The position numbers and the translations under genes were made by a program. 64,000 nt of DNA from Dudresnaya verticillata. Lineage: Eukaryota. Shown here piece by piece: positions 9,912 to 56,491 of this stretch. The notes under the pieces are model-generated. The model worked only from the letters and a program-made list of their open reading frames with translations. It was not told where the DNA came from and ran no database searches. Each line of letters opens with the position of its first letter. Positions within the stretch are counted from its first letter, which is position 1. Location of the stretch: assembly GCA_977862235.1 (NCBI GenBank), contig OZ374560.1:1240001-1304000 (forward strand), read 5' to 3'.

Positions 9912-10705
9912 TGTGGTGCAAATCCACTGGGTTGAAAAGAGGATGCACCTCAGGCTGTTCGATGGCCCGGTGGTAGCAGGTGAGGTAGTAGCGGTAGAGC
10001 AGGGGAATAGCCCCGTAGTGCGACTGTAAAACACTACAAGATCAAGAAAAGGGGGTTACCCTAGAAAAGAAAGAAAACAAAGGAAAAATAAAGGAAAAAC
10101 AGGACTCTGTACGATGAAGAAGGGTAGCGTACCCACTGGAGTCCAACCTAGCGACGGAGTCGATAGGGTAGGAGGGTGTGTCTCGCTGGGCCTAAACTTC
10201 ACTGTTTATTGTATCAGGGCGCACCTGAGGGCCCTAATATGCTATGTACAAGGCGGGTGCGCCTTGGTGGCGGATTCTAACAGTGAAGGGGGGGCGGGCC
10301 ACTTAAGTGGCAATTGGCATTGCGTGGGGCGCACAAATCTAGAATTACTTACAAAATATCAACTGTCAGCCTCTTGACAGCGTGGTCTGACAGTATGCGC
10401 TGAGGGTGCACACGCGCGCACGTGTGCGCGTTGTCGTTTCGAGGGGCCATCCTTGCTGGCAGCCGGCGCCAGGAGCTGTCCGTCGGGAGGGCTTACAGGG
10501 GAATTTCCCCAATGGCATTGCTGGCGCACGCGCGTGTCGGCAGAGCCCGTTGCGGCAGGGAAGTTGCCTCTGAGCTGAGAAATGTGCGAAGCGGATGATC
10601 CGCGGGTATCGGCCGTTGCGGCCCGTCATCCGCAGTCGCGCGAGTCGCGGGCGTGGTCCATTATGAAGAATTCTTCATTCCGGTGCGAAGGCGATTTGCG
10701 CCACA
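9912..10705 (-). repeat. G2 3' LTR
   Basis: Direct repeat of 34080-34861. Begins TGTGGTGCAAATC and ends GATTTGCGCCACA. Confidence 0.95.
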
Positions 10706-10714
10706 TCTCCCCCC
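10706..10714 (-). promoter_or_regulatory. Polypurine tract of G2
   Basis: Minus strand reads GGGGGGAGA immediately before the LTR start TGTGG. Confidence 0.8.
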
Positions 10715-10844
10715 GTTAAGCGGCGAGTATCCGCACGAGCCCACACTCGCAACGTTCATCCTGCACAAGTCGGCGCGGCTCCTTGCCATCTTATCCTGCG
10801 GGGGTCCGCTTGTCGGCTGCGTTCAGCGGAACTTGTGTGCCGCG

Positions 10845-12549
10845 ATGCCACCGCATTTCTCCCTTGCGGAACTTTACCGCGTGTTGCTGCACGCTCCGCA
10901 GAGTTCCGCAGCTTACCCCACACCAGCCAACTTCGACGGCAAGACTCCTTGGCATGACCTCATCGACTTCGCCAATGCCCCGTGGATGTTCCACTCTAAC
11001 GTCGGCAAGTATGCCCTCATTGAGCAGTATGTCTCAGCTGATGGGTTCCTGCCCGGGGGGTTGCCTCTTCGTGTCTCGCGTACCCCCGACTGGCGGCGAC
11101 ACGGGGCGATTCGCCCAGAAGGGATTCGTCGGCATGGCAGGGAGGACGTTCGCAAAGCCCGTCTGCGGTAAGCCAGTTTAGTGCTACAGCATCTCTCCCG
11201 CATGCCCGGTCGCGAGGTTATCCCTCATGGATATTGGTTAGACCTTGCGCTGTACCGTACAAATGGGGAAATCCCCTACGCTGACACCCTGGAGAATCTT
11301 CCTCTCCCGCATGCGTGGGATGGGGTGGAACCTCGCGTCCGCCAGTCTGCGCTCCTTATGGGCGTGCAGCTTCGTGCGAAATTCCGGTTCATACTCAGGC
11401 GCGAAAACAACGCTTACTGGGACAAGATTCGTTGGGAGCGGCGAGCCCGTTCCCGACTGGGTTTCTTGGTCCCTTATCAGAATGTCGAAGTCGACGCGAT
11501 CCATCGCTCTTACTTTTACCAGTGTTATATCAGTTTGCCGGTCCCACAGTGCGGCTTGGTTGAGTGTTTTGAGGGTTTCCTCGTTGCACTATCGCCCGCG
11601 GTGAGTTACACCATGTCGTCTGTTATCGGCTACCCGCAATCGGGATTGTGGACCGCATATTACACGGCGTTCGTGGCGAAGACGGCCGTCCAGTGGCTGT
11701 GGGAACTGTACGACAAGTACCGCATGTGGTACGTGTCTCCCACAGTCCTGACGCTTTTTGTCCAATTGGACTTGCGGACCGTCTTAGGTGGTGTGAACAA
11801 TGAAGCGGAGTTCCACGTATTGCTGGGGTTCTATGCCCAGATTGATTGGGAACCGTGACGAGCAGAGGGTCCCGTTGCGTAACCACAAGAGGCGTTCCTC
11901 ATCGTCCAACTTCTCGCCTGGGCGTCGGTACCCGTTGTGCGGCGATTGGGCGTGGTTCGACCCCTGGATGCGACCTTTTGTCTCTGTGGACCGTGCTGCT
12001 TGGTTGCGTAGCCACCCGCGTTCGATGCCACCGGGTCGGCCGCGAGGCTACCTGGTGGATCCCGAAGTGAGTGGCATCGCCGAGTGGGATTATGAGGAAG
12101 AGTCGTCTGGTGCGGAGAGTAGTGGGGGAATCCCCGATGATGATGCAATGACGATCGACGCCTACTTGGTCGACGAAGGGCAGCCGGTGGCGGCACCCGC
12201 GGCCCCAGCTTTCCCAGTTATTGCGGATGCGGGGGTTGCTGATAATACAGCCGCGACGACGACTCAGGCCAGCGGTCTTCCGCAGAGTGGGGATCTGAAC
12301 GACGATGTGGTGACGAACTCCAGTGTCGGGCGCGCCCCGTTTTGCGATCCCGGCTCTCCTCAACGGGCACGTCGCGTACGTTTGAGCTTCAGTCAGCGCA
12401 TTGCCGTGATCGGCTTTCTGCGTCGGACGGGAATTCCCGAGATTGCCATCCCCGGCAGCGACGAGGAGCTCCTCGAGGCGGCCGTGGATAAGGGTTATGA
12501 TCCGGACGTCGAGGGGGAAGCGGGCCCAAGCGGGCCTGCAGATTTCTAG
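10845..12549 (+). pseudogene. Extra antisense ORF inside G2, unknown function (frameshifted)
   Basis: Abutting + strand ORFs (10653-11171, 10783-11181, 11181-11858, 11800-12549) chain into roughly 560 codons of protein-like, W/Y/P-rich sequence starting MPPHFSLAELY. It lies between the PPT and the chromodomain. Confidence 0.6.
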
Positions 12550-12753
12550 TCGATCATCGACATATAATGTGGGCAACCGACCCTGCGGGCGTAGCCCGCG
12601 TGCTGTAGTAGGGGGAGCGTCGTCATGATCAGGACTTATTAAAGTTTGCCTGTTTGATAGTTGGGGTGGCGTGGTGTGTCGCTGTTAGGAGAAGTCCCCT
12701 TATATGGCGTAAAGCGAAGTAACCCACGGGGGTTGTGGTCGGCTAACGACGGG

Positions 12754-13072
12754 AACACTGATTTCAGCCGCTTCAGAATCTACTTTTTCAAACAGAATGG
12801 AAAACGTACCCACTTTATTACTTGTATGTGCAAGGAGAGAGCGAGCTAAGAACAGTGGTGCAATCCGTTTGCTCTCAAGTCAAGCCATTCCATAGTTATG
12901 GCCGTCCGCACACCCATTATATGACCCTTGAAAAGTTTCGAATTACCCCCGAAACTTTCCGAAAATAGTTTCCAGAAATTACCGCACGCCGCCGCGCGCC
13001 CCGCGGGGCCGGAAAGACTTGCCCATAAATGGCACCGGCGCCCCACCAGGCCGCCGCTCAAGTGCCCCATGG
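12754..13072 (+). repeat. Element A left TIR (weaker similarity continues to about 13190)
   Basis: Reverse complement of about 24712-25028. Confidence 0.9.
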
Positions 13073-13461
13073 CAAGCCCCATTCCATGCCCCATGTCGGC
13101 ATTTGCGCCGCGCGCGCCCAGTTTGTGAGTGCAGCACTGTACCCCCTCATCACCCCCGACTGGCACATGCGTCTGTGCCATGCCCCGTTACACCTTTACC
13201 CTTCCTTGGTCGTTGGGCCACCGCGTCATCGTGCGCGCCATCCACCCCACCATGCGCCGAGCACCGAAGACCTCCGCCGCCGCGGCGCGCCTCGCGCCCT
13301 TTCCGCCTTGGGCCGTCTCCATATCGTTCCCGCGGCGCGTCGTTCTCGCGTCCCGTCGTGTTCGCGCCCCTCCGCACCATCACCATCTCGTATCTGCGTC
13401 GCCAGTCGCCTCTATCCCTCATCTCCTCGTTCTTCTCCGCATTGCGCCCTCGTGCACAGCA

Positions 13462-14100
13462 GGTTCCACCGAACGTGTCGAGACCTGAACCTCCCTCAAG
13501 GCAAAAGGTCTGCAACAACTCCCCAATGACAGCCGGGTTCTTCTCTTCGACGAGTACAAGCGATCTCGTGTTTGGTCTCGTCAATTTATCCCTTGGGACT
13601 GGTACGCGTGACACATCAGCGAATCGCCGCTTCTCCGGTGCTTGCAGATCATTGTAGTTGCTTGCTAGGTCTGGTTTATATCCTTTCGGGTGGACGCCTG
13701 GAGCTCCCGCAAAGACTGCAATCTCCGCGGCATTCTGGGGTGCGGTTTGGCCACGGTGTGCCTGCATTGTCGAAGTGTCCTTCATAATCACGTAAGGGTA
13801 AGCGGGGCATTTGAACTGGTACTTCACAAATGCCTCGCGGAATTCCGGGAATAAAAGGAATGACGTAAAGACTACCCATCCACCGGGGATAACAACCGTT
13901 CTTGCGAAAGCCACTAGGGCCTTAATCTCCTCCCCAATCATGAAGTTGTCGTAACTTTCACCAGCCCCAGCCTGAGACTTCTTTGTGCCGTACGGTGGGT
14001 GCGTCAGCAGAATGTCAAACAGTTTGCTCCCTTCCTTGCCCACGGTAGTATCGAACTTCTGCCAACGCATCTGGAAGCACTCCAGTTTCATTTCTTTCAT
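13462..14100 (-). pseudogene. N4-cytosine/N6-adenine DNA methyltransferase domain (beta-class motif order), C-terminally truncated
   Basis: FDILLTHPPYG is motif IV (DPPY with a D>H change). It is followed by PGG.VV, then EKN...GGSGLDTFGGT (motif X/I). Homology to the 62.5-63.3 kb copy stops at about 13462. Confidence 0.8.
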
Positions 14101-15975
14101 ATAGTCTATGTGCTACGTCGCATCGTTGTTATCAGATTGCACACCTTTGGCAGTGTTTAGCGGTTCCGATTACACTGTGGATTCGGACATGACTGCAATG
14201 GCACCGCCAGAATTCTGGGTGTCTTCATCCCCTCTTGCACCTGTCCCGGCTGCGGCTGGATCTTCTCCATGACACGCTTCCTGCGTCGCATTTTTCTCTT
14301 GTGCATCCGATATTAACCCGCCTGATACCGACCGTCCCACTTTTCCAGAAGTCCCATTCGCTGGTAAAGTCGCTGTTTCGGGTTCCTTTGGGGAACCAGC
14401 GGCTCCCTCGACATTGCATTCACCAGGAACAGAATCCTGTTCCATATCACCGGGAGTAGTACCCTGTGCTTTGGGTACTGTCTGGCCTTCATTAGGCTTC
14501 TTTTTGTTTTGAGCTTCTCGGGCAGTGAGAATGACGTGCTCGCGAAACGTTTTTAGTTTGAAAGGGGCTTCTTGAGGGCATGAATCCTTGTACAGTGACA
14601 TGATTGACTTCAGCAGGTCGTGATCGTTACCCCTGTTCATGGTTATCTCCAAATCCAGCTTCGTACTTTTCAACAGGTTCTCGCGAAACGTAATCATAGC
14701 TTGCGGCCATTCCTTCCGTTCCCTGACGAGTTCGAATTTATGGACCTCTCTCATCGCGGCTTTTGTCTTTTCAAATGGTTCTGTTGTGAATCGATGTGGC
14801 ATCGGCTTGAAGCTATGATTCTGTGACAACTCCCGACGCCTGTAGAGTGTTGCTACCTGCGTCTCCACGGCGTTATCCGAAAACCCGGCATTCATAAAAG
14901 CCCTTGATGATCGTAGTGTATATATGCGAGAAAACGTCCGATACACACGGCAACCCATTGCCTGCATCGCGGTTGGCCTATCCATTGCTCTTCCTGACGT
15001 TTTGAAGGCCTGATGGGAGGCTAACTTATGGGAATTCCTCATTCATGATGACACCGACCGCTTGAATCGTCTCCCTGGGTAATCGAAGAAAGCTTCCCGA
15101 AGTCTGCTTTATGGTGTTATCCGTCAGGTGTCTGCAGCCGTCGTATGCTCGCGCAACAGCAACAGCAGTTGGTGTCTTCCCATTGTTTTCAGCAGTAAAT
15201 CGGTCAGTTTCAGCTCTTAGTCCACTGAGCACATCGTAGAATGTAGTTTCTATGTAGAAAGAATAATCTTGCTTGCTGTTTTGATGCCTTGCCAGTTGCC
15301 GGAGGACTTGAACATCGTGACCGCCCTTCAATACTGTTACAGGGAGAGCAAAAGCCTTCCGCCTGTCGTAGTCCTCCTGATTTAGTTCTAATACAACGCC
15401 AACCCTGTGTTGCCCATCCACAACTCCATACCAGTCCGAACGTGACTCATGCAGTTCCTTTACCTGCTCCTCACAAAAGGGAGATCCATCAGGATTCCGT
15501 TTGGATGTAAGGTACTTGTTTACGTATCGACGCAAAGTGCCGGTCAGCTTCACCACTATTGGGGCATCGGACCTTGCCACGAATCCGGAGTTGGAGTGGT
15601 CGGAGTTAGGATTCGGAGCACCGCGGAAGATCAACTTTAACCTCTCCACGCCATACAGCACAATGGGCCGAATTTCAGAAACGGTACGTATGCCTTCCGA
15701 TCAACCCGGCAGTTCACGGACCCTTCCATTACCTCCACAAACAACGCTGCTGCAGCATCTCAAGCGTTCCTGGAGGCAGCAGCATCTTGGGGTACTCCTT
15801 TGCTCTTTCTCCTGCTCCCACCCATTTTGGCAGGTTGACATAGAAGATGTGACTGTCGTGGATTACAAAGCCTTTCCTTCGGATTAGAACTGGAAACGTT
15901 TCCAGGGTATACACGGGGAACAAGACTTTCAAAATAGGCGGGAAACGTGCTGAGGTCTGTTTGGACGTACCGCAT
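14101..15975 (-). pseudogene. ParB/Sulfiredoxin-like (DGQHR) domain + helical middle region + linker, apparently fused to the methyltransferase
   Basis: IRPIVLYGVERLK...WYGVVDGQHRVGVVLEL...LPVTVL...LRQLARHQN. Frameshift near 15030. ORF 14170-15042 is in frame with the MTase across two stop codons. Confidence 0.7.
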
Positions 15976-17371
15976 CCACCGGCGGTGTTGGGATCTGAAA
16001 GCAGATCCGAGACCCTAAGTTCGCTCTGAAGTCAGGATTCTGATCTGATTCCGTTCATAAATTACGGTCACGAACACGGTATCGAAACATGCCGTACAGG
16101 CATTTTCTACTCTGCAGTTCTCCGTGAACAGAATATCGCTCGTGATCACATAACGCCAGGCCATGCAAAATGCCTTCCCTTGGCGTCGGTAGTCAACCTG
16201 TGCAGTCTCTTCGGTGCGCGCGGTGCGCGCGGGTCGCACGGTTCTCCATAGGGGACGGCGGCGCGCGGGTGGGGTCGGGTGGGAGGGTACCTGAACTTAA
16301 CGGCATAGTGAAACCGTACGGTAATACCCAGCGTCGCAAAGTCTCACGGACTTCAGTGCACGGAATACAGTACGCTCCGCGGAGCGGGAGGCTGAGAGCA
16401 GGACGTTCAATTCCCGTTAATCGGTCCTGCAGCGGCACATTTTGTATTGTACAGTCGGTTCCCACGGACCGTTACGGTGGACCGTGGATCCATGGTAGGA
16501 AATCGTTCGTACAGTCGGTACGATACCACCTTCCAATAATGTGCTGGTATCACGCCACACACGCGCGTGTGGCTTGTACCGAAACGTGTTATCGGATAGG
16601 TTTTGAGATTGGTGGCGGTTGATAACTATTGGAGCAATACCAGTATTGCATGAAAGCTTTTCATCCAATCACCAAATCAATATCTGTTTAATTGCAAATG
16701 AGATGCGTCAGCCGAAAAGCTTGATAGATATTATCCAACGGCAATTACACGAGCTTTCAAATAGCTATCACTTCGGGCCACACACCAAAAGCTAAATAGC
16801 TTTTCGCCACCCGCATTTCGCATTGCTTCCAGATAGCTTTCTGTCCGGTGCCGCGGCCGAGAACCATTTGAGCAATACAAGTATTGCTCAATAGCTTTTC
16901 AGATCTCGCACGCTCAATATCTATATCTTGCCCGGGCTCATGCGCCCCCTCCCAGACGCATTGTAGTACACGCCTCGCCACCAACTGCACGCCACCCGTC
17001 CCTCACCCTCGCCGCGTCGACACCCCCTCGTTCTCGCGTCTCAGAGATGCCAACAGTACTGTGTTACGCGGCAGCAAGTCCTCCCGCAACGGCATCAGTA
17101 GCAGCAGCAGTCAGCAGACGCGTCAGGAAGCGGCGCCATGGCGGGTGCACCTGCTCAAGTGCGCCGCGCACCGTTCCCTCATCAGCACCAAGCTCGTACT
17201 ACTCTCTCGCGTCGGTCTTTCAAGGCAGACCCAGCGCCCGCGTGCTTATACTGGTACACCAGACGATATATATACTCTGAAGTGTTCCACAACAGGATTC
17301 TGTTTACTAAGTTCGTACACCGCACAAGCTGTAAAAGATGGTACATACAGGCGTACGCCGTGAGCAGCTCG

Positions 17372-20300
17372 TCATGACATCTGCAGTGATTCCCTTATCT
17401 TCTTCCTAGCCGCGACAGGTATAGTAGCCTTGCTGAGGAACGGGAACTCCACCAGCACCGTGTCGACGGAGATTGTTTCTTTCCACGGTCTGCTGCGCAG
17501 AAAGCAGGGTTTGTACCTTCCCGTCCATGGCCCCTCGTTCGCACGAACCTCGTACCAGTGAACGTACAACCTCGACACGACATTAGTATCGAAGGTTCCG
17601 AGAAAGTCCGTGACCTGCGCTATCCAAAACGGGATGTTTGCCGTGTCTTTCAAGTCCCGGGGATCAGGGCTCAGTGCTACGAAACTGTTCTTCGTGTAGG
17701 TAAGGTCTACAGTAGGATCCGCGGCAGGCATTTCGATACCTTCCCCGTCGACCACCTCGTCCTCTAAAACCCCATCTGCAGCCTTATAGGTCCCGTTAAG
17801 CTCGAAAGCTTCATCCAGATTCCAATGAAATGGCTCCTCCCTGTCCCTGTACACATGATCTCGAAGCTTTTGTAGCGACCTCATCTTCGCAGTGCTATTG
17901 CTGCACGGCTCTTCTGTCCTCAAGCGGTCGTTGACCTCTTTAATATCCGGGGGAGTACGAGCAGGAGTGTCGGGCGTTCTCTTCAAGTCCGGCGCGAACA
18001 GAATGAATCCGACTTGATTGCTGTTCGTATTCAGCGGGACGAACTCATCACTGCAACCAATCTTGACCTGGAAGCCTGTCTTGAATGTCGCATTTGTGAT
18101 GGGCACTCCGACCACTCGGTGGAACTTGAAGAATCGGTAATGCTTGAAAGACTCGATCTTGCCAATGGACTTCTCAGCCTTGCAAAGTCCAGAGAAGTTT
18201 GCTATGTGCAATAGTCGGTTTTTAATGGGCTGGGGGTTGTAGGATTTCGTCAACTCCTCCAACAAATTATCCATAGTGACTGAATCGTTGGCCTTCAGTC
18301 TTACAGATTTGCAGCTGAATGAATCGTTGGCCTTCAGTCTTCCAGATGTGCAGCTGAATACCTGGTCAATGTCTGCGTGCGTGTACCCGATGGGCAAGAA
18401 CGACACATGGACCTCCATGAAGACTCCCCAGGCAACCAAAAATCCACAGTACGACATCAGGAATGTGTTCTTGTTTTCCCGTGAGCAATCGTCGACCTGC
18501 AAGTAGAGTGTCCCCCTCACTCCGCCCTGTCCTTCTTGATCATGAACACTCTGTGGAGAGCTTCTATTATATGGTTGGCCCTGGTTTTGAACTCTGCAGT
18601 CATTGTGTACAAATAGAGCTGCTTGGTCGCTCCATGCTCCAAAACCCCACTAGTTTGGCCTTAATCTCATGACCGGTCGTGCTCTTCATATTAACAGGGA
18701 AATGTGGAAGCCCAAATTCGGACTGGTCCGCTCCATCAATTATAACAGAACAGAATTCTGTCGGATAAAGTGCAGCCATCTCCGTCTTCTTCCTGTACTC
18801 GCACCGCTCCTTCCATGCAATAGCAATATGCTTGCTGCGGCGTGCACGAAGTTCCTCTGTGGCACTCGAATTGGTCCCTGCTTTCGCTAACAAGTCCCGG
18901 ATTTTCTCACATTCTGTACAATTGGTGAACCTGTGCACTTTCCGCGCTTTGATATGACTGCAGTGCTTTTGCCAAACGTCACAAAAGTAGCTTATCACTG
19001 CAGGGATACGATCCGTGTAGAGTTTGCGATGCTCTGCGACATAAATGTCGTAGATAGCCTTCCTTTTGAAGAAAGGAAGGTGCGCCTCCTCACTGTCTGG
19101 CATGCAGTCCGCCGACGCCTCTGCAAGTCGCTCCAGAAAAGTAACAACTATATTACGTTGGTCGGCAGCAACATCCGGTGATCCTCCCTGCACGCAATCC
19201 AGCTTACTGCTTTGCGGTGTTTCCTTCACGCACGCCTGCAAGTCTCGTGAGAATGCAAATACCTCGAGGAGGAAGGCATAGCACACGGCAACGCCGGAGA
19301 AGTAAAACTTGTTCTTGTTTCCTTGCAGTAATGTCTGCAAGTAAGAACTTCCATCCTCTGCATCCATGAGCAGGACGCGTCTCGCCTCCGCCCTAACAAA
19401 TAACGCCTCCATACTAGAGAAGCATTTTCGGGTACAGCACTTCATCCGCTTCACATCTCCGTTCTCCAACTTGCACAAAAGTTTCTTCCTCCGGGTCAGC
19501 AGCAAGCCTTTACCCTTCGCCTTTTCCTGCTACTGCGGTAGGTGTACTTGCGCTTCCCACGGGCATTTCTAGCGGAGTGACCTCCGGAAGGTCTTCCAGG
19601 ATTCTGTTCGACATTATCGACATTGTCATCGGCATCCTGTGCACCTCGATACAAGCCACGATCGCCCTGTTCACCACCTGCATCCGACGGCGGGTCATTC
19701 TTCCCATTCACCTTCCCTATCTTGCGCAAGGAACCCCTTTCAACTTCTTTGCCCGGGTCCACACTCTCGGATGTAGCATAGGAGGGCGTTTCATATTCTG
19801 ATGCAGACTCAGAGTGCGAATGTGACTCGGAGCCGTCTGCAGACACCCTTCGGCTGACCGTGGGATGCTTTCTCTTCGACCCCAAGGGCGCCCTGGCGAC
19901 AGGGGACGTTTATTCCCTGGCCCAGACCGGCCGCTCCTGCTTCGGAAGCGGAATCCGCTAGCAACAATTGTCGCGGCCGTGGGCAACACCGGGCGCGAAG
20001 ATGGCTTTTTGGGGCGGGGCCGCATCTTGGGTCGCTGCTCCGGGGTGTGGACTAGAAGCTGAATGGATCCAACACTGTCCTCCTTGACATCACCATCTGT
20101 CGACACGGGATTTATGGACGCCGAGGACGCTCGCGGCGTTAGACGACTTGGAACGGCGCGCTCAGCACTAGCCTCCGCCCCACGTGGGATACGCCGCTCG
20201 CGCATACTGTGCAAATTCCAGGCGTGGAAACCGCCGGCAAGCTCGTTAAGGCTGTCTGGAACAGTGTCCAGGCTTTTGTAGGTGTATGGATACTTGCGGG

Positions 20301-20553
20301 CGGCATATTCCTTCTCGATTTCAACGTTACGAACAACAGCCAGGAACTGCCCCTTCTTCCCCAGCTTGCAGAGTTCGTGGTTGTGCACCACAACGCAGTA
20401 CTTCCCACTCTTGTCCGCTCTTGAGGGTACCATCGGCTTGAAAATTCTCGCACACCCCACGTTCGTGCCTTTCAAAAAAAGATTTACCATCCCATCCCCA
20501 TCCTCACCGATCACCATGATGTGCGTGTGAGGACCAGCACTAGAGGGGCGCAA
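17372..20553 (-). pseudogene. DDD-type RNase-H-fold transposase-like gene (Sola-like), frameshifted
   Basis: Cys motifs KCCTRKC and CTEC, then SVIIDGADQS, LYLQVDDCSRENKN and FLPIGYTHADIDQVFS. These match the QxDNCxxxNKN...GHTHxDxDxxF transposase-derived family. The ORFs at 19496-20553 may be its N-terminus. A 39-bp in-frame duplication lies at about 18282-18359. Confidence 0.7.
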
Positions 20554-22024
20554 CGAAAGCGCGTATCGGCGCGTTGAGAAGAATGCAGATAAACGGAAAG
20601 GGATTTATCTGTAAAGATTAGGTCCGGTGTGCGACAATGGCGCTGGGACAGCTGCACAGGATGCTGGTTACCAAAATGAACTGGCGCACGGCTCGGAGTC
20701 GCTCAACACCATGTGGTGGCGGTTTATACCGTTCGTGGTTTAGGTGAACCAGGGTTTGGCGAGGGAGGTACTGGTAATGGACTTTCCACCACACATTCGC
20801 GATACAATCACACCAGCGGGCGGTTTGATTGCCCGCAGAATTCTGTTTGGCGCAACCAGAATTCTGAACCGTTCCATCGTTCTCCGATAAGACAGCTCAG
20901 AAGATCCCTTACAGACAACCCGAATACCATCGCTCTCAAATAATTTCGAAGAACAATGAAGAGAGTTCTCGAAGTCCATAGTTCAGGAGATGAAAGTGGG
21001 AAAAGACAGACAGAAGAAGAAAACACTGGGCGGCGTTCAAATGGAAGAGTGTCTGAGCATCCAGACAGAAATTCCGCCCACAAGGTAGACTCCCAGCCTA
21101 CCGTAGATCGTTCAAAAAGTGCTGAGGCAAGTACAGGGAAGACCCCTGCGGACATTCAAACGAACGGAGCGCCAGCAAACACTTTACTCACTCCGCTACA
21201 GCCACCTCCTCGCAATCTCTCGAAAGCTTCACCTTCTCGTAATACGAACGCCAGCGGAGAGAGTGCTATGATGGGGACACGTCAAGAAGTTCTTGGTTCT
21301 AAGAACGCAGCACAGCAAACAGAATTTCACGGTCGAAGCCAACTACTCTCCAGAGGGGCAGTTTTTGCGTTGCTTGCTGTGCTTAGCAGCGAAGTGCCGC
21401 GCAGGAAGAGCAAGCTTGAAGGGACCCCAGTCGGGGTGCCAGACCGTATTGAAATTCCGTACAAACGATCCATTATGAACGAAGTAGCTAGGATGTTAGA
21501 AAGCGAGCAACAGCCGCCACAGATAACGAGGGAGAGGTGAAGAAACATAGTTAGGGTGCAGAACTATAGTTCTGCGGGCATGCTGACTAAGTAACACCGA
21601 AAGCAGGCGATATTGGTTTCGAAGGGAAGCTGCATTCTATACACGACAGCGCACAAGGAGAGATGCCAGTCTCAGAATTTCAGAAACCCAGAAGCATTCT
21701 TCCTTTTAGTGGACCTCTTCAAGTACTCCACCGACCAATAGCGTGTCATGATTTCTGCAGCATGTCGCCGCCATTGCCGCCGCCACCCATGTGCCACCCT
21801 ACCCATGTTCACCATATGATGCATCATATTCGGCGGCATCATCAACACTAGTGTTAAAGCTTTCGGCTTTCTGGACGGAGACGCCGCCGACCCTCATTCT
21901 ATCAACTTCAATAACAACACCTCCAAGATTGGCTCATACGCCAAGTAGTTTATCGTCCTGGCCGCTTTTGCCTTTGACGTCTCGCTCATTCAGGTCCATT
22001 TGATACTCATCTTCATACAGGGTT

Positions 22025-23525
22025 TCTACGCCCGCCTGCGTCGCAAGTTCTTCGAGAGAATCATGTCCCAGGATTATACCTGGGTTGGCCACAACGACGG
22101 TGGTGAGCTCACGGACCGCGTCGCAGGAGATTCCAATCATACTAAGAGCGGCATTGGCGACAAGCTTACTAGCGCCATCCATTGCTTTGCTATGTTCATC
22201 ATCGGTGCCATAATCGCGTTTGTGTATGGTCTGCTGCTCACCCTGGTCATCCTACCGTTGCCCTTCTGCTCATCGGAGGTGATGCAATCTTCTCAAGTTC
22301 GCCACTGTGACAGAGAGTACTGGCGATGGTCTCGGTGCGTATTGTGCCGCTGGCGCCATCGTTAGTGAGGTCATGGGCCTCATTCGTACTATCACCGCCT
22401 ATGGCGGACAGTAAAGCGAAGCGAAACGCTATCAAGCCGACTCGGCTCTCAGATCTCGGAGCTGCACAGTGCGTAAAAGCAGACTCTCGCAAGTCTACAT
22501 TTGCCGTCATTGGCTTTGGCCTGTGGTTTTTCATAATCTTGGTCGACTAATCGCGAGATTCTATGATGTGGAAGAAGGGGCTGTTTAGTTTCATGGGGTG
22601 AACGTGCGAGCTCTGAATGGTCGGTGGCTCCGTGCCCAGATTGGGTATGTAGGTCTAATGCCACGGATGTGAATGTGGATGAGAAGACCAAGAAGACAGT
22701 GCTCACAAGACGTGCAGTGCACCGCGTATGTCGGAGGAAGAGATTGTCAATGCGGCGAGGCAGGCTAACGCGCATGTCGGAGGAAGAGATTGTCAATGCG
22801 GCGAGTCAGGCGAACGCGCATGGCTTCGTCATGAAACTGTCAGAGAAGTAGAATATGATGTTGGGAGAGCTCTCCAGAATTCTGCTTAAGCTGCTTAAGC
22901 TGGCTTCGTGCTTTGCTAGAGTGCATGCACCATGGTGGAAAAAGGCAGAGGGTTTAAATTGAAGAGGGCACCGACCCGCAACTCGAAGATACTGTTCCTT
23001 TACGAGTCGACTGCTGCTCTGGGTGCGCAGTCAGAGAGGGTTGTACAGGACGAAATGGAGAAGGCATCAGCTGGTCTAACTGCGGTAACAATTGCGCACC
23101 GTCTGGGCCTAGTGAGAATTGTGACAATATCTTTGTGAATGATCACGGACGAGTAGTTGAGTCTGGGAGTCACAACGACTTGGTCCGTGTGGAAGACGGG
23201 GCATATCGAACTTTGATAGAACATGAAAATGTGTAAGCTAAGAACGTTGAGGAGATCAACAGCAAAGCTCCTAATGATGGGACGACAGGAAAGGCGGAGG
23301 CTTACGTGTCCAAGAATTCAGTGTTGAAAAGACTGCAAGCACGCGCTATAGATGAGTCTGAAGAAGAAGGGAGAGAACCGGACGTAGATAGTGGGGCTCT
23401 TTTCCGAGCGTTCCGTCTGAACACTACCGAGCTTCCGCTTATTTCTCTAGGCGCTGTGGGTGGTGTGGGTGGCGTAATGACTGCAGCTACACTCCCAGCA
23501 ATGGTCATTGTGTTTTCGAAGGCAA
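22025..23525 (+). pseudogene. Captured, decayed fragments of an ABCB/P-glycoprotein (MDR) transporter
   Basis: ARLRRKFFERIMSQDYTW...GELTDRVAGD...GIGDKL (TMD1), EEIVNAASQANAHGFVMKL, and KILFLYESTAAL..QSERVVQ...TIAHRL (NBD). Many stops and deletions. A 46-bp duplication lies at about 22728-22830. Confidence 0.85.
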
Positions 23526-24102
23526 CGAATGGTAAGACGCTGGAATCAGCGAAACATCAGTGCTCGGAGTCGCAGCACGCGTTGGCGAACCGATTCCTTG
23601 GTCTGCAGCAGCCAGTACACTATGCCATAATGCAGACAGCGAGTAATCATTCTCCCGGAAAAGCTCCTTGGAGTGGGAATACGTTTCAACAACGAGCCTG
23701 CCTCCGACTGCATCTGATTTCAACCATGATGAGCTAGTGTTGTTCTTGACTACCTGGTTCAAGTCACGCGAAAGCTGATAATTCCAAAAGTCATCGACTG
23801 ACGGCGAAGCAGAAACGAAAGGCCCATCACACCATTGCCGTCGCGTGCGTGTGTGCAGTGGCATCCTCGTCTCAGTCATGGCGCATTCCCCGGCGTGGCG
23901 CAGCTCAGAAGACGCGACGCATCGCGTCCGGGCCTTGCGTCGGAGCTGCGCTTGTGCTCCAACGAACCTTCGAGCACTGCAGGGCTACCATAGTCCACTA
24001 AGGGGCATCTCCTCCACAAATACCCCTGCTACCATGATGACTTCTTGAGCGCCACTGCGAGGATTGCGGGTAGTCTATTCTCTGCTCCTTCATCGTTAAC
24101 GC

Positions 24103-24410
24103 TCAATTGAGCTTGGGGGCGGGGGCGGCGTTCTGAAAAGCATTGAAGAAGGCCGAGGCGACGCGGGGAGTGGGAGCGGCTGGGCCCTTGCGGGCGGAGC
24201 GCGAGGAGGCATTGGGCTTGCGCTTGCGGGATTCTAGAAGCCCCGCGCGCTCTACGGAGAGCTCGTCCTCGAGCTCGAACTCGCGCTCAAGCGCGTTGTC
24301 GGCGGGGTCGAAGCCGTCCGCGGCCGGATGGTTGTTGTCGTCGATGAAGTCGCGGGCTTCCTTGCGCTTGCGCGCGGCGATGGCGGCGTAGGTCTCCACG
24401 TGCACCAATG
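24103..24410 (-). pseudogene. Possible captured fragment of the DNA polymerase alpha catalytic subunit N-terminus
   Basis: VHVETYAAIAARKRKEARDFIDD resembles the Pol alpha N-terminal motif (V.E.EY..lv..RR.E...FI.DD). Short match only. Confidence 0.4.
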
Positions 24411-24711
24411 AAGACGTGTGCAGCGTGCACATGACAATTTGTTAGTGCGGTGCGGGCGCGAGGCGGTGCGGGCACGAGGTGGCGAGGTGGCTAGGGCGCG
24501 ACGTGACTCGAGCACGAGGCGGCGCGCGTGCGAGGTGCCGAGGTGGCGGGACGTTTGGTTGGGTAGAGGGTGCTAAAGGCGACGCGGCGTGGTACGACGG
24601 TGACGGGTCATGCTGAACCGCACTCGCCGGTGAGTTTCAGGTGGTGCAGCACTGCGTGTAGTGGCATGGGTGCTCCCTGAGGAAGCTGCGAAAATGCCCC
24701 ACCCCATACTG

Positions 24712-25028
24712 GCATGGGGCACTTGCGCGGCGGCCTGGTGGGGCGCCGATGCCATTTCTGGGCAAGTCTGTCCGGCCCCGCGGGGCGCGTGGGCGTGCGG
24801 AAATTTATGGGAAAATATTTTCGGAAAGTTTCGGGGGTAATTCGAAACTTTTCAAGGGTCATATAATGGGTGTGCGGATGGCCATAACTTGGGAACGGCT
24901 TGACTTGAGAGCAAACGGATTGCACCACTGTTCTTAGCTCGCTCCCCTCTTGCCAATAAATGTACGAAAGTGGGTACGTTTTCCATTCTGTTTGAAAAGT
25001 AGATTCTGAAGCGGCCGAAATCAGTGTT
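24712..25028 (-). repeat. Element A right TIR
   Basis: Reverse complement of 12754-13072. Confidence 0.9.
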
Positions 25029-26404
25029 CGGGGGCGTATGTCGTCATTGAGGCGTGCGTCGTGTAGTGTGGAGGTCCACATTCCGACAGCGACTTGCATG
25101 TAGATGTGCCCCGGCCGCTTGGCTTTCGAATGCTCAAGGCCGTTGCTGGCTAAGGGCAGTATGTACGGATTTCCGTTTGAGGCATAACGCCCCTATTTCG
25201 ACTTAGTCGCGACCGGCTTGGGGACGAAGTCGAGTAATACTTGCGGTCGTCCGCTAGGGAGGCCCGCTGTATGCGCATGAGGTGCAGGCGATTGGTGCGG
25301 GGTGCGATGGCACCAATATGGCCCAATGGTAAATCGTAACGTGGCCCATGCGACGTGACTCGTACAAGGGTACAGTGGCATCAGTCGTGCACTGTGGTCT
25401 AGCCACATCAATTTTGTACAGCCATCTGTTGCGGGGCGTTGGGTTGTTCATGTCGCATGTATGCGGAACGCTGACGTGGTAGTGCGAGCCCCAGTGGATC
25501 CGCCAACGCCTGAGTCGGAGTCGACGGAGAGGGACGGGCCATCGCCTAGAAGCGGTATTTTCTAACGTTGCTCGAAGCGGAATGACGCGTGCGCGCTATC
25601 GCATGATATCCATGCTTCTTGACATCGATGGTCGTGTTCTCGGACGCCCTAAACATGTGGGATTACACTTGTGCGAACAGTGTGGCGGTAGGTCCCGCGT
25701 GTGTGGAGGGATTCCCTGAACATTGGGGTGCGCGACAGGTCAGCGATTGCTCAAACTAGTGATTACGGAATTCCGTCTTAGTCATAATTGCTTTGGCAGG
25801 ATCGGTCGTAGACGACTTGGAGACGGCAGCAGCGCGCGAGTGCGGTTCGCTGCGGTCTGTGTAGGGGCGTTCCCCCTTATATTTACCAAAAGGGGTGTTG
25901 TGGGGCGTCTTATATGAGAGGGGTCGTGAGCGTTGCGTTGGGGCTGACCTGGATGTCCTGCGATGTGGGATTCCACTTTCTGTACACGACCTGCGCCAAG
26001 GCGTTCCCACCTTATTGGGGAACGGATGCTCTAGGCCATTGGCGGTTCGGGGGAGTCATTACGGAATTCCGTTTTGTGCATGCTTGCCTTTGTTGACTTA
26101 GCCGTGTTCGACTTCGGGAGAGACGAAGGTGATCAAGTGCGGTCGACCGCTAGGGTGAGTGGGTGCGCGTAGGGTGTGTCTGAATGGTGCTGCAATAATT
26201 AATATCGTGCCTGACCAGTGAGATGCTATACCGTGGCGTACAGTACTCCCTTTGTGTGCGCGGCATCTATTGTCGCATCAGCTCCTGGACCCGAGTCTTC
26301 GACGTGGTATGTCCACTTCATTTGCGACTTAGCAGATGTCTGCACGCGTGCTGTTTTGGAGCCTAGTCCACCATGGTCTTTGTAACAGTGGCGGGGACGC
26401 CGAG

Positions 26405-26560
26405 GCGTCTCCTCTTACAATAGGAGATAACGTGGCTTCGGGGTAGATGTTCTAAGGGCTCCCATGTATTTTGGGATGACGGGTATCCGTACCGTTTGAT
26501 TTCAAACAGAGGTTCTGTGTGAACATAGCGGTGGTTTACCACTTTCTCGATAACATATTA
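26405..26560 (-). pseudogene. G2 chromodomain
   Basis: Manual translation gives YVIEKVVNHR...FEIKRYGYPSSQNTWEPLEHLPRSHVISYC. Confidence 0.8.
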
Positions 26561-27375
26561 ATCGCGTGATGCTGGACTAGTATGATGTGTTGACGTAGGC
26601 CGCGTCGCGATGGAACTAGGGGTCCATGCTTGAGGTATACCCCCTGGTAGTCCATTATCTCGAGTTGCGAATTGCGCCTTTGCGACCGATATGCGGATAC
26701 TTCGTCTGAGGGCATCTTGTGTAGTCGGGCCCCTCAGTGATTTAGGATGCGCGGGATTTCGCACGGTCGCGGTATGAGTAGGCGGGGGCCAAGGGGAATC
26801 AGCGGTTGTGGTAGTGGTGGTGTCACCGCGGAGTTAATTCCCGCTTGAGTCGTGTCGTCGTCGCGCTGCTGTCTAGGACTTCAATCCGGGATTTCCTCGA
26901 CCTTATCATGAAAGGAAACCTTTTTGACTCGCGGTTGTGGATTGTCCACTTGGTCAGCACTAGCCGAGTCGACGTTGGACGTCGGGCGTAGTTGAGGCAA
27001 TTCCCCGCTCGGCCGTGGCTCTTGGCCGTGAGCCGTCGAGTACAGCACCGTATTTCCGAGTGGCGTTTCCACATTAGTACTGAACGCTGGCGGCGGTCGC
27101 GTTTTCGTAAAAGGGAGTTCCTTGATCCTGGTATTGGGAAGCGGTAACGGGGGGTCTGTTTGTGTCCCAAGAGGTAGTGTTTGAGGAACATCCTCTGCAG
27201 TGTCAGCGTGGTCAGCAACTTTGTCAGCTGACGCAGAGAGTTTGCGGGGGACTTACTCGTCCTCCTGTCTGACGATCTTGTCGTTTTGCCAAGTAATTTG
27301 CGGTTGCTCCGCATGGGGTTGTTCATTACCGGCGGCGATGTCGGGAATAATGGGGACGGTGGCGGTGATCCCGGT

Positions 27376-28830
27376 TCATGCAGTGGGGGCCACTGCGCTT
27401 GCGGTAGTGAGCATATGCACACCAGTCACGCGACTGGGCTGGGTTGGTGGGAGTAAATCAGCCAATCCGCGGTTGGTATGGGGTTGCATGGCTGGCGTCA
27501 CGGCATGAAAGGTAATTGGGGAATTTTCTCCTTGACGTACAGTAGTTCCTGTGTAGTGCTGTACTCGAGTATGATCATTGCGGAGACCGTCCGGTGGCGG
27601 AGAATCCGCATTAACTGGGCCTGCCGTCTCTTCAGCGGCAGCGTCGGCGTTCGTTTTCCTTGGGGGAACAGGGGCCATCACCACTCTATCGCGGGAAATT
27701 CGCTCGTATTCAGGCCTATCTTTCTCGATGGTGACCGTTTTGTTGTCTGCGTCACTAACGCGATAGGGTCCATCGGCGATAGACGCCAACTTATGCTTTG
27801 GGGTGTCCTTCCTGTATTATTCCTTTCGTACGTATACGTAGTAGTCTACTCCGATGAAGTCGCGTGAGGGACGTACCCTATTATCGAAGTTGCGCTTGTA
27901 TCGCGCTTGTGTCTGGTCAACACCTTTGGTGGCCGTTGACAGTAGTCCTGTGAGCCAGGACTGCCACTTGGCGTGGAATGTAGCCGAACGCGGCACTGGT
28001 TCCAGTAAGGGATGTGCCTCGACGCTTAGAGCGGGTGGAGGTCTGGAAACTACTAGATGGAAGGGGGCCAGGTTCGTGGTTGAATGGACTTGCGTTTTGT
28101 ACGCATATGTGATCGCATCTGAGAAAAGGTCCCATTCACGCGGATGGTCTGCAATGTAATGCAGTAGCGCGGCGCGCATCGTGCGGTTAAACCGCTCAAC
28201 CTGCCCATTACATTGGGGGTGATACGTTGTAGTAAAGAGGGTTTTGATCCCCAACGTTCCACATAACGACTGGAACACCTTTGCGGCAAATTGTCCGCCA
28301 TTGTCCGATAGTAGGTACAACGGAGGTCCGTAGACGTAGACCCAATGCGTAATGAACGCTTCGGCGACTTTTGCAGCCGTACTCTTCTTCATCGGGACTG
28401 TCCGAACGAGTTAAGAGAAACGGTCTGTGATGACCAAGAGGAATCTATTGCCTCGTATTGTGCGAATCAGTTCGCCATAGATATCAATGGAGACAAACTC
28501 CAGGGGTTCTTTTGCTGGAAACAGCTTCATGTGCTTTGTAGCATAAGGCGATTGCGTGCACAGGTTGTGCAGTATCGTACGGTGGCGTAACAGTCCACAG
28601 CCATGGAAGGCCAGTAGAATGATCTACGAAGTGAGTAATACATCTTGCGACCACCGGGTGTCTGGATAGTTTCGGGAAGTGTGCTAGGTGTAACACACGT
28701 GCACGAAGAGTGAATGGTATCACAATTTGAGGGATTGCCTCTCGTGTGCGAATGAGGACTCCTATCTCGTCTAGCGCGAACGGTAACCCCTCCCCCCGTT
28801 AAGGCGAGAATGAAGGGAGGTGCAGAAAGC
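27376..28830 (-). pseudogene. G2 integrase (fragmented)
   Basis: HLAHFPKLSRHP...CTTC, LLSDNGGQF, TTYHPQCNGQVERFNR and GPYRV. Confidence 0.9.
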
Positions 28831-29031
28831 ATCTACTAAATGCGTTTGAAGAAGATCTTCCGTCGTGAGTGGGCGTAAGAGCTTGGGTTGGGTTGAAGGC
28901 GGATTCGCCAGAAGGAGTTGGTTGGAGACTTTGTCGTCCAATTCGAGGAATTCCTCCTTATTGCAAAGGGCACAGGTTGAAGGAGCGTCCGCCTCGACGT
29001 GGAAACACGGAATTTCGTCCTCGATATCGAC

Positions 29032-30458
29032 TTAGGTTTCGCCAAACGTTTGAAGACGCGAAAGGGCGTCCGCTTGGGTGTTGATGTGCCCCTTCTTGTA
29101 GCGGACGTCAAAGTCCAATTCCAGCATGCGTAAGCGCCAGAACATACGGCGCACAGAGGGATCATTAATATCCATTAGCCAACGAAGAGAGGAGTGATCG
29201 GTGTGTATGGTAAACTTTTCGATTTGTAGGTAGGGCCGAAAAGTGGTAGCAGTCCACACCAATGCCAAACACGCCTTCTCGGAAACCGAGTAGTTCTTTT
29301 TGGCAGCTTGCGGAGAACGGGACCAATACCCGAGTGGTTTCCTCGTACCGTCGGTGTGCGTTTGGAATAATGCGCAACCGACCTGGTAGTTCGAAGCATC
29401 AGTATCGACAGAATAGGGCAAGCCAGGTTTTGGCAGTGAAAGTACCGGTGGTTCCGTGACCGCTTTGATAAGCGCCTGGAACGCTGCCTCTTGCGTGTCG
29501 TCGAGCGGCCCAATAGTGTCCGGGTGATCCTTTTCAGGAGCCGGTTCAGTGGTCCTGTCACGTGAGCGTAATTGGGGACTAACCTCCGATATACGTTGCA
29601 CAGTCCGAGGAAAGACCTCAATTCAGTTTGAGTACGTGGGTGTTTTGCTTTGGAGAGTGCCGCAGTGACCGTTGGGCCGACCCGTAGTTCGCCTGGGCGG
29701 ACAATATGGCCCAGGTAGTTGACATTGGTTGTGAATAAATCACATTTCTTCAGTTTGAGGGTAACTCCGGCTTGGTTCAATGCAGTCAATATTTGCTCGA
29801 CGTGTTCAAAGTGGTATTCCACGTCCTTGGAGCAGATGATAACATCGTCCAAGTAAACGAGGCAGGTCTTCCATTTGAAACCCGAGAGCAGGATATCCAG
29901 TGTCCTCTGGAAGGTAGTGGGAGCATTGGTCAGACCAAACTGCATCCTTTTGTAGCGGAAGGTTCCCGCATGGCATGTAAACGTGGTTTTGTTACGATCG
30001 CGATCGTTGATGGGGATTTGCCAATACCCCGAGTTGCAATCGAGCGTAGTAAAGACATTTGCTTCGCCGAGTGAATCGATACACTCATCGATGCGAGGTA
30101 ACGGGTATGTATCCCGAACGGTTGCAGCATTTAAACGTCGGTAATCGACACAGAATCGTAAGGTACCGTCCTTTTTAGGCACCAATACAACTGGGGATGC
30201 CCAGGGAGATTGTGCCGGTTCTATGACGCCAGTTCGTAGCATGCGGTCAACTTCCGCTTGTTCCACTTGGCGTTGCTTCGGTCCAGCCCGATAGAATGGA
30301 CACGAGAACGGCCTCGTACCCGGGATCATATCGATGTAATGTTCCGTAGTGGTGATTTCACCTAGGGAACCATCCCAGATTGTAGCAAACCTACCAAGAA
30401 ACTGTCGGACACGTTCGCCGTGGCGCTCAGTCAAGTGGGATAAATCCACGTCATCCAC
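29032..30458 (-). pseudogene. G2 reverse transcriptase + RNase H (frameshifted)
   Basis: SPWASPVVLVPKKDGTLRFCVDYRRLN, YLDD, DTDASNYQVG and TDHSSL. Confidence 0.95.
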
Positions 30459-30827
30459 CGAAGGTGGAGGTTCATTTTCAGCTTCAAGGGTCTTCCCATG
30501 AGCGTCACCTTTGTTTGTCGTATTCGACAGTCTGCCCAGTCGTTAGGACTTTGTTGCGGAATCGTCCGCTAAGTCAGCCAATCCAAGCACGTCCACCAGC
30601 GGGATGGGACTGGGAACCATAGCGGTGGGGTGCGGGAGGGCGGTCGCGACGACCTGGTTCTTTGGCAGAACTTGGTCATGCGACGTAAAGTTCGCGACTA
30701 GAATGCGGAACGGCCGCTTTGGTTCAACATAGGCTATTCCATTCGTCGAGATTACTCCCGGGCGGTGATACGGCTTGTCGTAGGGCTGAAGTAAAATCAG
30801 CCCTGCGCGTTCTGTGGTTACTGAAAC

Positions 30828-31340
30828 TCACTTCTGCGCTTGTGCTGCGACTACGATTCGTTCCGCGACAAGTATTTTTGTTGAGGTATGAACTCGTAAT
30901 GTCTCATAATCCTGATCGTCAGGTAGAGGTGGAGCCGTGGGCGGTCGTTTCAATAGTCGGCGTGTAATTGGCACGCGAGTCCCATTGTCGCGTTCGACTT
31001 CACGGCTCTTCGGAGAGATGGATTCTACGAAACGATCGCAGAAGTCACATCCGAGGATGACCGGGGCGGCGAGTCTCTCGCAGACAACAAAGTCAAGTTT
31101 GACATGCGGTCTCCAAGCCGGACAACCAAGGCGATTACGCCGCATGTTTGCAACGTTCGGTTGTTGGCGTCGCTGGGGGTGGGGATGTCCCCATCTCGAA
31201 TGCGGGATTCCGCTTGGAGTGGTAGTTCAGATTTTCTGATAAAGTTGGGACCGGCACCGGTATCTAGCACAGTACGTTTACGCGATAGGTAGCTTGGGTG
31301 TAAACCCGTATCTGCGTATACCTTAAAGTTGCGCTTTGCC
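30828..31340 (-). pseudogene. G2 aspartic protease
   Basis: VLDTGAGPNFI and VILGCDFC. Confidence 0.85.
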
Positions 31341-31560
31341 GCTATCAGCAATTTGCCTCGTGTGTGCGGGGGAAGGTACCGGTTCCAGGGCCTGCACAAT
31401 CCCACCGTTGGCGGTGCGTCAGGGGTCCTACTAGCCCGTGCAGGGTTCTGCAGTATGAGCTTTGGAGTTATATCCTCCTGTTTATCGGGTCGTGACCCTT
31501 GATCTTCGGTCTGTAATGGCTCCTGTTGAAGCTCCCCAGTCAAAGGGGGCCTGACCTCGA

Positions 31561-33691: not shown

Positions 33692-34065
33692 TGGCGGCGG
33701 AAGTGATGCCGAAATCGGCGATGGTGGAATGGGCAGATCGGGCGGAGATGCCGGCTGCCCCCTTGGACCTGATCAGTCGGGAGAGCCCCGGCTGGGTCAC
33801 CAGGTACTATCTCCACCAAGGGCAGTACACGAGGAACCCCCTCATTGACTATTGCCGAAAAGGCGGCTTGGACCGCAGGACTTGCCTACGCACGAGCTCG
33901 CGTGACCACCACAGCTCCGGGCTGCGGTGGGGCGGACCTTGCCGACGACAGCTGTCGACGGAGTGGCATGGCAGAAATTCTGCGATGTATGTAGAAGGTA
34001 GGATATGAAGAACGGTAGTTCCGTAGCGGAGATAACGTAGTCAATCGGAATTTCCGAATTTCTAG

Positions 34066-34077
34066 GTCGGGAGGCCA
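34066..34077 (-). promoter_or_regulatory. PBS-like site of G2
   Basis: Minus strand reads LTR end CCACA-TT-TGGCCTCCCGAC. TGG is complementary to the tRNA CCA end. Cognate tRNA not identified. Confidence 0.55.
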
Positions 34078-34079
34078 AA

Positions 34080-34861
34080 TGTGGTGCAAATCCACTGGGT
34101 TGAAAAGAGGATGCACCTCAGGCTGTTCGATGGCCCGGTGGTAGCAGGTGAGGTAGTAGCGGTAGAGTAGGGGAATAGCCCCGTAGTGCGACAGTAAAAC
34201 ACGACAAGACCAAGAAAAGGGGGTTACCCTAGAAAGGAAAGAAAACAAAGGAAAAATAAAGGAAAAACAGGATTCTGTACGATGAAGAAGGGTAGCGTAC
34301 CCACTGGAGTCCAGCCTAGCGACGGAGTCGATAGGGTAGGAGGGCGTGTCTCGCTGGGCCCAAGCTTCGCTGTTTATTGTATGAGGGTGCACCTCAGGGC
34401 TCTAATATAATATGTACAAGGCGGGTGCGCCTTGGTGGCGGATTCTAATAGTGCAAGGGGGCGCGCCACTTGGCATTGCGTAGGGCGCACAAATCTATAA
34501 TTACTTACAAAATATTAACTGTCAGCCTCTTGACAGCGTGGTCTGACAGTATGCGTTGAGGGAGCGCACGTGCGCCCGTGTGCGCATTGTCGTTTCGAGG
34601 GGCCATCCTTGCTGCCAGCCGGCGCCGGGAGCTGTCCGTCGGGACGGCTTACAGGGTAATTTCCCCAATGTCATTGCTGGCGCACGCGCGTGTCGACAGA
34701 GCCCGTTGCGGCGGGGAAATTGCTTCTGAGCTCAGAAATGTGCGAAGCGGATGATCTGCGGGTATCGGCCGTTGCGGCTCGTCATCCGCAGTCGCGCGAG
34801 TCGCGGGCGTGGTCCGTTATGAAGAATTCTTCAGTACGGTGCGAATCCGATTTGCGCCACA
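34080..34861 (-). repeat. G2 5' LTR
   Basis: Direct repeat of 9912-10705. Confidence 0.95.
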
Positions 34862-56490: not shown

Positions 56491-56491
56491 T

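Follow-up and report, generated by a model that had tools for sequence, protein, structure and literature searches.

A probable Sola1 transposon carrying captured DNA polymerase alpha and ABCB gene fragments in Dudresnaya verticillata

We analyzed a long insertion, element A, bounded by terminal inverted repeats (TIRs) within 64,000 nucleotides of DNA from Dudresnaya verticillata (Eukaryota; NCBI GenBank assembly GCA_977862235.1, contig OZ374560.1, positions 1,240,001 to 1,304,000 of the forward strand), a stretch hereafter called the window and numbered from its first letter. There is a strong case that A is a cut-and-paste transposon of the Sola1 group, now broken, in which a ParB-methyltransferase gene belonging to the element is accompanied by pieces of two host genes. 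These pieces, from the genes for the catalytic subunit of DNA polymerase alpha (Pol alpha) and for an ABCB transporter, probably entered through template switching as breaks were repaired. We hold with high confidence that A belongs to the Sola superfamily and has a Sola1-type transposase, and the genuine capture of the host fragments is hardly in doubt. Both the family and its accessory gene are already known, whereas the capture of host genes is apparently unreported for Sola.

Results

Host gene fragments lie between inverted repeats and a target site duplication

Read directly from the window, A is a single block with AACAC...GTGTT ends between two copies of CGGG, an exact 4-bp target site duplication (TSD), as a first-pass annotation made from the sequence alone had proposed. 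The insertion of 12.3 kb that it placed at 12750..25032 is real; these coordinates include both TSD copies, and the element proper lies between them. By blastn, the TIR cores were 91.6% identical over 323 columns (E = 3e-127); a count over the cores gave 295 matches and 23 mismatches, or 7.2% divergence. The core is 321 bp long. Inward of the core, the likeness of the subterminal regions gave a local score of 31, against 27 for the best of 60 shuffles. Because similarity past the core is weak, a TIR of about 320 bp is solid, and the 440 bp given as the upper end of the initial estimate is generous. A lies inside the Gypsy element G2, downstream of its integrase and approximately 2 kb in from the 3′ long terminal repeat (LTR), which upholds the earlier view that it is nested in the 3′ region of such an element.

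The length of the TSD was settled by a sister element in the same window, element B. Taken by itself, A could also be read as having a 2-bp GG duplication with GAACAC ends, a reading excluded by the ends of B and its GTTT duplication (GTTT/AATAC...GTGTT/GTTT); the TSD is therefore 4 bp, exact in both elements. Furthermore, one short terminal pattern fits all four termini of A and B and was found nowhere else in the window. Excision of B together with 4 bases fuses open frames of 57 and 59 codons into one. The fused frame gave a weak alignment (local score 41) that continued through the junction when compared with the Harbinger transposase of the window, whereas removal of B plus 1 or 7 bases gave a score of 35 and an alignment that stopped at the junction. 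No reading frame runs across the empty site of A.

Within the boundaries of A, fragments of two unrelated host genes abut tail to tail near position 23520. The three Pol alpha pieces match residues 47-145, 546-572 and 679-762 of homologue P0187, a full-length Pol alpha encoded in a single frame of 1532 amino acids, at 74, 67 and 58% identity (E = 8.5e-30). The fragment had no match in Pfam or PDB and was found by the homologue search alone; its earlier description as a probable Pol alpha fragment can be replaced by a definite one. The ABCB pieces correspond to residues of about 124-233, 494-524, 590-630 and 679-733 (E = 4e-21, 4e-8, 0.008 and 0.25, respectively), the last of these being weak. 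In B, Pfam searches of 73 frames identified a WD40 piece (E = 9e-7), a His-tRNA synthetase (HisRS) whose anticodon domain matched at E = 3e-6 and whose core was weak in Pfam and matched at E = 0.005 against PDB, and a mitochondrial carrier piece at E = 9e-4, under the Pfam cut-off and without PDB support. Multi-gene cargo is thus present in two of two Sola1-type elements of the window.

Since neither the 3′ part of a Gypsy element nor a Harbinger frame is a native place for host genes, the fragment DNA must have arrived from elsewhere, whether carried by the element or filled in afterwards. In both A and B, TIRs and a TSD surround host gene fragments, the combination that characterizes Pack-TYPE elements, and both are non-autonomous, the transposase of A having two frameshifts and that of B being reduced to its last 50 codons. 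Since these 50 codons belong to the transposase family of A, the two elements are tied to one family. Together, these results bear out the initial description of A as a single TIR insertion with pieces of unrelated host genes inside it.

The transposase of A is of the Sola1 type

Besides its two frameshifts, the transposase pseudogene of A, which matches PF25273 (DUF7869), has a 39-bp tandem duplication and an H-to-Y substitution in the GH motif; the aspartates are kept, and a low-complexity N-terminus probably extends to about 19900. It matches 10 proteins at 30-56% identity, and all ten have in common three aspartate motifs that, judged from the sequences, presumably form the catalytic DDD triad. 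In the Sola1 profile hidden Markov model (HMM; PMC5751038 supplement), D stands at position 86, N-k-n at 92-94, g at 108, f-l at 117-118 and g-H-s at 121-123; the transposase of A fits positions 86-123 (D-n-c-x-x-x-N-k-n, then g, f-l and g-H-s) without a gap. Across all six frames of the window, this spacing pattern was encountered a single time, at 18493 on the minus strand, and it recurs in 10 fetched proteins, every one a transposase homologue.

The structural features agree with this assignment. Sola elements are described as having a DDD transposase, a 4-bp TSD, TIRs of 11-1124 bp and sizes mostly of 2-9 kb, some exceeding 15 kb (PMC10741241); A and B have 4-bp TSDs, TIRs of 321 and approximately 400 bp, and sizes of 12.3 and 7.6 kb. 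Moreover, the low-confidence predicted fold of homologue P0001 matches integrases, IstA, RuvC and RNase H. The same fold search also yielded BAH chromatin-reader domains (E = 0.003), a match that, in this model, probably stems from a C-terminal beta-barrel corresponding to 17400-17750 of the window (minus strand).

Other assignments were rejected. The published Sola2 alignment (PMC3627910), compared by eye, has other motifs around the catalytic residues. The first-pass annotation had correctly set A apart from Pack-MULEs and from Pack-CACTA transposons, with which its 4-bp TSD, AAC ends and PF25273 as the only transposase match do not agree; the former are marked by 7-12-bp TSDs and a Mutator transposase, the latter by CACT ends and an En/Spm transposase.

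For comparison with relatives, 90 outside loci were fetched for the transposase alone, 80 from 491 confirmed metagenome matches and 10 from prokaryote assemblies. The TIRs of A and B had no match in any of these loci. The ten prokaryote-genome matches, on contigs of metagenome-assembled genomes (MAGs) of which nine are <7 kb, are probably contamination; a 732-kb Nitrospirales MAG contig (L086) bears a Sola1-type transposase match with repeat-rich flanks, either a real bacterial copy or a chimera. Among viral contigs, 22 transposase pattern matches were obtained and none was confirmed as a relative.

The ParB-methyltransferase gene belongs to the transposon

Downstream of the transposase on the minus strand, A carries a gene for a ParB-like protein with an N4/N6 DNA methyltransferase (ParB-MTase), which has two frameshifts and one stop and is cut off where the methyltransferase domain closes. 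Its methyltransferase open reading frame (ORF) had no direct match in Pfam, PDB or a word-indexed search and was identified via homologues: the methyltransferase part matches 173 protein clusters at 50% identity, many of 850-1100 amino acids, and N6_N4_Mtase (PF01555) was present in all 18 homologues tested. A profile built from 30 homologues (950 positions) covers the gene and also has matches in 5 of the 90 outside loci; 11 of the loci are at least 6 kb long, and 3 of these are among the five. Because these matches adjoin the same transposase type, the ParB-MTase is an accessory gene of the transposon and not captured host DNA. The interior had initially been described as a mosaic of ParB-MTase, DDD transposase and ABCB pieces; all are present, and the first two are the element's own genes.

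A domain homologous to the C-terminus of ParB-MTase lies upstream of the transposase, and the front part of the gene and this domain accordingly stand on either side of it. Upstream of the ParB gene, a 49-bp repeat whose core is palindromic occurs twice; the copies are candidate ParB binding sites by their sequence. The segments 15810-17372 and 20605-21750 had no match among the fetched proteins, the loci or Pfam, and the main ORF of the latter had none in PDB. Between the transposase and the ParB gene, an ATG-led Ser/Ala/Arg-rich stretch at 17070-17280 (plus strand) resembles, by eye, a plastid transit peptide; without a database match, it is possibly a third captured 5′ gene fragment.

Accessory proteins beside Sola1-type transposases of other hosts were observed in locus L011 (2360-5746), L009 (4513-8790) and L004 (1092-5099). 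The ParB-methyltransferase of L004 has 1335 amino acids, and those of L011 and L009 have a SET-like domain, recognized by eye, after the methyltransferase, as in red-algal PAG2.

Table 1 Features of elements A and B and of their surroundings in the window
Feature	Position	Strand	Description
Host Gypsy element G2	9912..34861	-	LTRs 9912-10705 and 34080-34861, 5.9% diverged; gag-pol on minus strand
Left TSD copy of A	12750..12753	+	CGGG; sequence read
Element A proper	12754-25028		12,275 bp; CGGG/AACAC...GTGTT/CGGG read directly from window
Left TIR core of A	12754..13074	+	Starts AACAC; sequence and blastn
Left subterminal region of A	13075..13460	undefined	GC-rich (66%); weak likeness to right one
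ParB-like + N4/N6 DNA methyltransferase accessory gene	13462..15810	-	Profile positions 7-705 of 950 at 15774-13462
49-bp repeat	16615..16901	undefined	Two copies 238 bp apart, palindromic core; upstream of ParB gene
Sola1-type DDD transposase pseudogene	17372..19500	-	PF25273 (DUF7869), Pfam E = 1e-32; three frames
Domain homologous to ParB-MTase C-terminus	20197..20502	-	Profile positions 853-949, E = 3e-16; upstream of transposase
ABCB/P-glycoprotein N-terminal half, captured	21949..23530	+	Decayed; collinear pieces
Pol alpha catalytic subunit, captured	23517..24405	-	Three collinear pieces, large internal deletions
Right subterminal region of A	24441..24709	undefined	GC-rich (67%)
Right TIR core of A	24710..25028	-	GTGTT at end; sequence and blastn
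Right TSD copy of A	25029..25032	+	CGGG; sequence read
TSD of B	52551-52554 and 60169-60172		GTTT; GTTT/AATAC...GTGTT/GTTT read from window
Sister element B, non-autonomous	52555..60168	+	7.6 kb; related ends; TIRs ~400 bp (82%)
Cargo of B	55772..58305	+	WD40, His-tRNA synthetase and weak mitochondrial carrier pieces
C-terminal remnant of A's transposase family in B	58610..58759	+	Last 50 codons, E = 1.7e-8

How the cargo may have been acquired

TIR binding, excision and staggered insertion are general properties of DDD/E transposons. The DDD transposase of A would have bound the long TIRs, excised the element and inserted it with a 4-base stagger. By analogy with the published hypothesis for the Ectocarpus gene, the ParB domain would bind sites in the element, which the N4/N6 methyltransferase would then mark. 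The host-gene pieces may have been gained by template switching while internal breaks were repaired from host templates, and patching of this kind would explain why the cargo pieces are deleted and jumbled. A would now be mobile only in trans, with transposase from another copy. For Pack-TIR elements, capture has been attributed to template switching at internal breaks or to the joint excision of two copies (PMC8277862, PMC12187468, PMC8903248). We lean toward the view that the cargo has moved with the element at least once.

It is possible, although we consider it unlikely, that a Sola1 element inserted free of cargo and that host DNA filled in later, on site, by transposition-independent gap repair, leaving A as a single-copy relic. 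Most single-copy Pack-TIRs in animals are ascribed to this route (PMC8277862), and no second cargo-bearing copy was seen within the window. Conversely, the multi-gene cargo of both Sola1-type elements argues for movement with the element, as does the report that giant algal DNA transposons are still mobile with nested DNA (PMC12477816), neither point being decisive.

Equally doubtful is a composite origin, in which two neighbouring Sola1 copies whose inner ends have been lost were excised jointly, as in the Pack-CACTA model. Such an origin would explain why the front half of ParB-MTase comes after the transposase and the C-terminal domain before it, since complementary halves of the accessory protein would then stand on either side. 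Moreover, a C-terminal fragment belonging to the nearest ParB-MTase cluster and the nearest full-length transposase are both listed on 3518-bp contigs, an unverified hint of an ancestral tail-then-transposase order. However, no TIR remnant above shuffle level was found inside A, and the order of transposase and ParB-MTase differs from relative to relative, being divergent in L004, tandem in L011 and convergent in L009. In addition, no correlation was seen between how homologues rank for the C-terminal domain and how they rank for the methyltransferase (rho 0.11, p 0.62, n 22), and for this reason the two may come from two genes. The split order in A could thus reflect either one gene permuted by the fusion of two copies or two genes.

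Several observations weigh against interpreting A as a broken Sola1 element with its own accessory gene. The fit to the Sola1 HMM was judged by eye and covers 38 of 124 positions, and the fold model is that of homologue P0001, with a mean predicted local distance difference test (pLDDT) score of only 50. A clear TIR pair with a TSD surrounds the transposase in none of the 90 outside loci, and the outside ParB-MTase matches are distant, two of the five being weak and limited to ParB. The accessory gene lies on the opposite strand in Sola1-1_Ec32 of Ectocarpus, as that element is described, whereas in A it lies on the same strand, split around the transposase. Finally, the preference for AWWT targets, called a hallmark of Sola1 (PMC3845634), is seen at neither of the two sites (CGGG and GTTT). 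We took this preference as a family-level trait and not as a defining one, because the curated Ectocarpus Sola1 likewise lacks it.

The first-pass annotation, in which Sola was not considered, had suggested an undescribed family. In keeping with a new gene-capturing TIR superfamily, the TSDs are not AWWT, and the literature searched contained neither a Pack-type Sola element nor the name DUF7869; nevertheless, agreement with Sola1 extends to the catalytic stretch, to the lengths of TSD and TIR, to the AAC ends and to the accessory gene, and we regard such a superfamily as very improbable. The suggestion of an undescribed family must be withdrawn, because the transposase fits the Sola1 profile and because AAC ends, a long TIR, a 4-bp TSD and a ParB-methyltransferase are already found together in Sola1-1_Ec32. 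Least credible of all is that two separate, oppositely oriented insertions give the appearance of a single element. The TIR divergence of A (7.2%), slightly above the LTR divergence of the surrounding G2 (5.9%), might be cited for this reading, but it is contradicted by the exact TSD (chance about 0.4%; 0.0042 for random pairs of 4-mers within the window), by the failure to find inner ends, and by the same pattern in B, whose removal restores an interrupted frame.

Surroundings of the two elements

The 5-bp flanks of G2 (9907-9911 and 34862-34866) are unlike at 2 of 5 positions, so G2 may be recombinant or mutated. We take G2 to resemble red-algal Gypsy elements; this likeness, the base composition and the Pol alpha homologue, a single frame on a 6.3-kb contig, suggest that the host is probably a red alga. 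The 3′ region of G2 holds long antisense ORFs (10599-12549, plus strand) without a Pfam match. Farther along, AT-richer ORF fragments at 38244-40178 (plus) and 45674-48040 (minus) likewise had no Pfam match. In the Harbinger element at 48375-51344, a plus-strand DDE_Tnp_4 transposase (PF13359) and a presumably Myb-like minus-strand ORF, for which Pfam had no match, are arranged tail to tail. This element adjoins a second, decayed ParB-MTase gene (51232-52017 and 62408-63293, plus strand; approximately 66% DNA identity to that of A) at its cut, and an ORF like the minus-strand one starts near 63358. The second ParB-MTase gene was cut by a Harbinger-like insertion, which was cut in turn by B. 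Within B, direct repeats of 174 bp and 68 bp occupy 58948-59455, between the transposase tail and the right arm.

Discussion

Our findings add Sola to the groups of transposons that collect host DNA. We tentatively propose, with less than even confidence, that the Sola1 elements of this probably red-algal genome make up a Pack-Sola lineage, systematically capturing genes and present in multiple copies, which descends from large autonomous elements that mark their own copies via a ParB-guided N4/N6 DNA methyltransferase. Through this lineage, parts of essential housekeeping genes would be redistributed within a genome otherwise poor in introns. If multi-copy, Pack-Sola would bring Sola, and likewise algae, into the range of gene capture by transposons. 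Such elements would also mislead gene annotation, because the Pol alpha, ABCB and HisRS fragments resemble extra gene copies. Furthermore, the pairing of a Sola1 transposase with a ParB-methyltransferase, described for a single brown-algal family, is widespread (173 protein clusters; profile matches beside the transposase in 5 of 90 loci), which makes the self-methylation idea testable with intact relatives, not with the broken A.

Comparison with known systems

The closest counterpart is Sola1-1_Ec32 of Ectocarpus, described as a 21,549-bp element with AACCG-CGGTT ends, a 282-bp TIR, a 4-bp TSD and Sola1-1_PPa as its best match, and with a gene for a 1104-amino-acid ParB plus N4/N6 methyltransferase protein proposed to modify its own element (PMC12477816). 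It shares with A a Sola1 transposase, AAC ends, a long imperfect TIR (282 versus 321 bp), a 4-bp TSD, a size of >10 kb and a ParB plus N4/N6 methyltransferase gene of about 1000-1100 amino acids. In contrast, Sola1-1_Ec32 is listed as autonomous with TSDs that tend to end in A, whereas A is broken and has the TSD CGGG; and no host-gene fragments are identified in the description of the Ectocarpus element, whereas A carries Pol alpha and ABCB pieces. Giant elements of Ectocarpus have already been likened to Pack-MULEs (PMC12477816).

With the Sola1 group as described (PMC10741241, PMC3845634, PMC5751038), A shares a DDD transposase with Sola1 catalytic spacing, a 4-bp TSD, and TIR and element sizes within the range; insect Sola1 prefers AWWT targets (PMC3845634), unlike A and B. 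Like Pack-TYPE and Pack-TIR elements (Pack-MULE, -CACTA, -hAT, -PIF and -Mariner; PMC8903248, PMC8277862, PMC12187468), A is a TIR element without a working transposase that bears fragments of several unrelated host genes; unlike them, it belongs to another superfamily and retains remnants of its transposase and accessory gene. Sola is absent from the main text of two Pack surveys, and no report of a Pack-type Sola element was found in the literature searched, which took in a minority of subscription journals and neither Repbase Reports nor Bao et al. 2009.

Giant algal DNA transposons with N6/N4 methylase and ParB-like accessory genes beside inverted repeats are also known from red algae, namely Plavaka, Mutator and Zisupton elements with PAG2 and PAG3, and accessory genes are reported to move between transposon families there (Bostrychia preprint, bioRxiv 10.1101/2025.02.11.637652). 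In the PAG2/PAG3 elements, which are EnSpm-type, two separate genes are involved, one joining ParB to a 2OG oxygenase and the other joining the methylase to SET, whereas A has ParB and methylase in one gene within a Sola1 element. Lastly, Sola2-Fanzor chimeras (PMC3627910) resemble A as Sola elements with 4-bp TSDs that acquired an extra gene; they differ in that their transposase has Sola2 motifs, their TIRs are short and their passenger is a mobile element, whereas the passengers of A are pieces of host genes.

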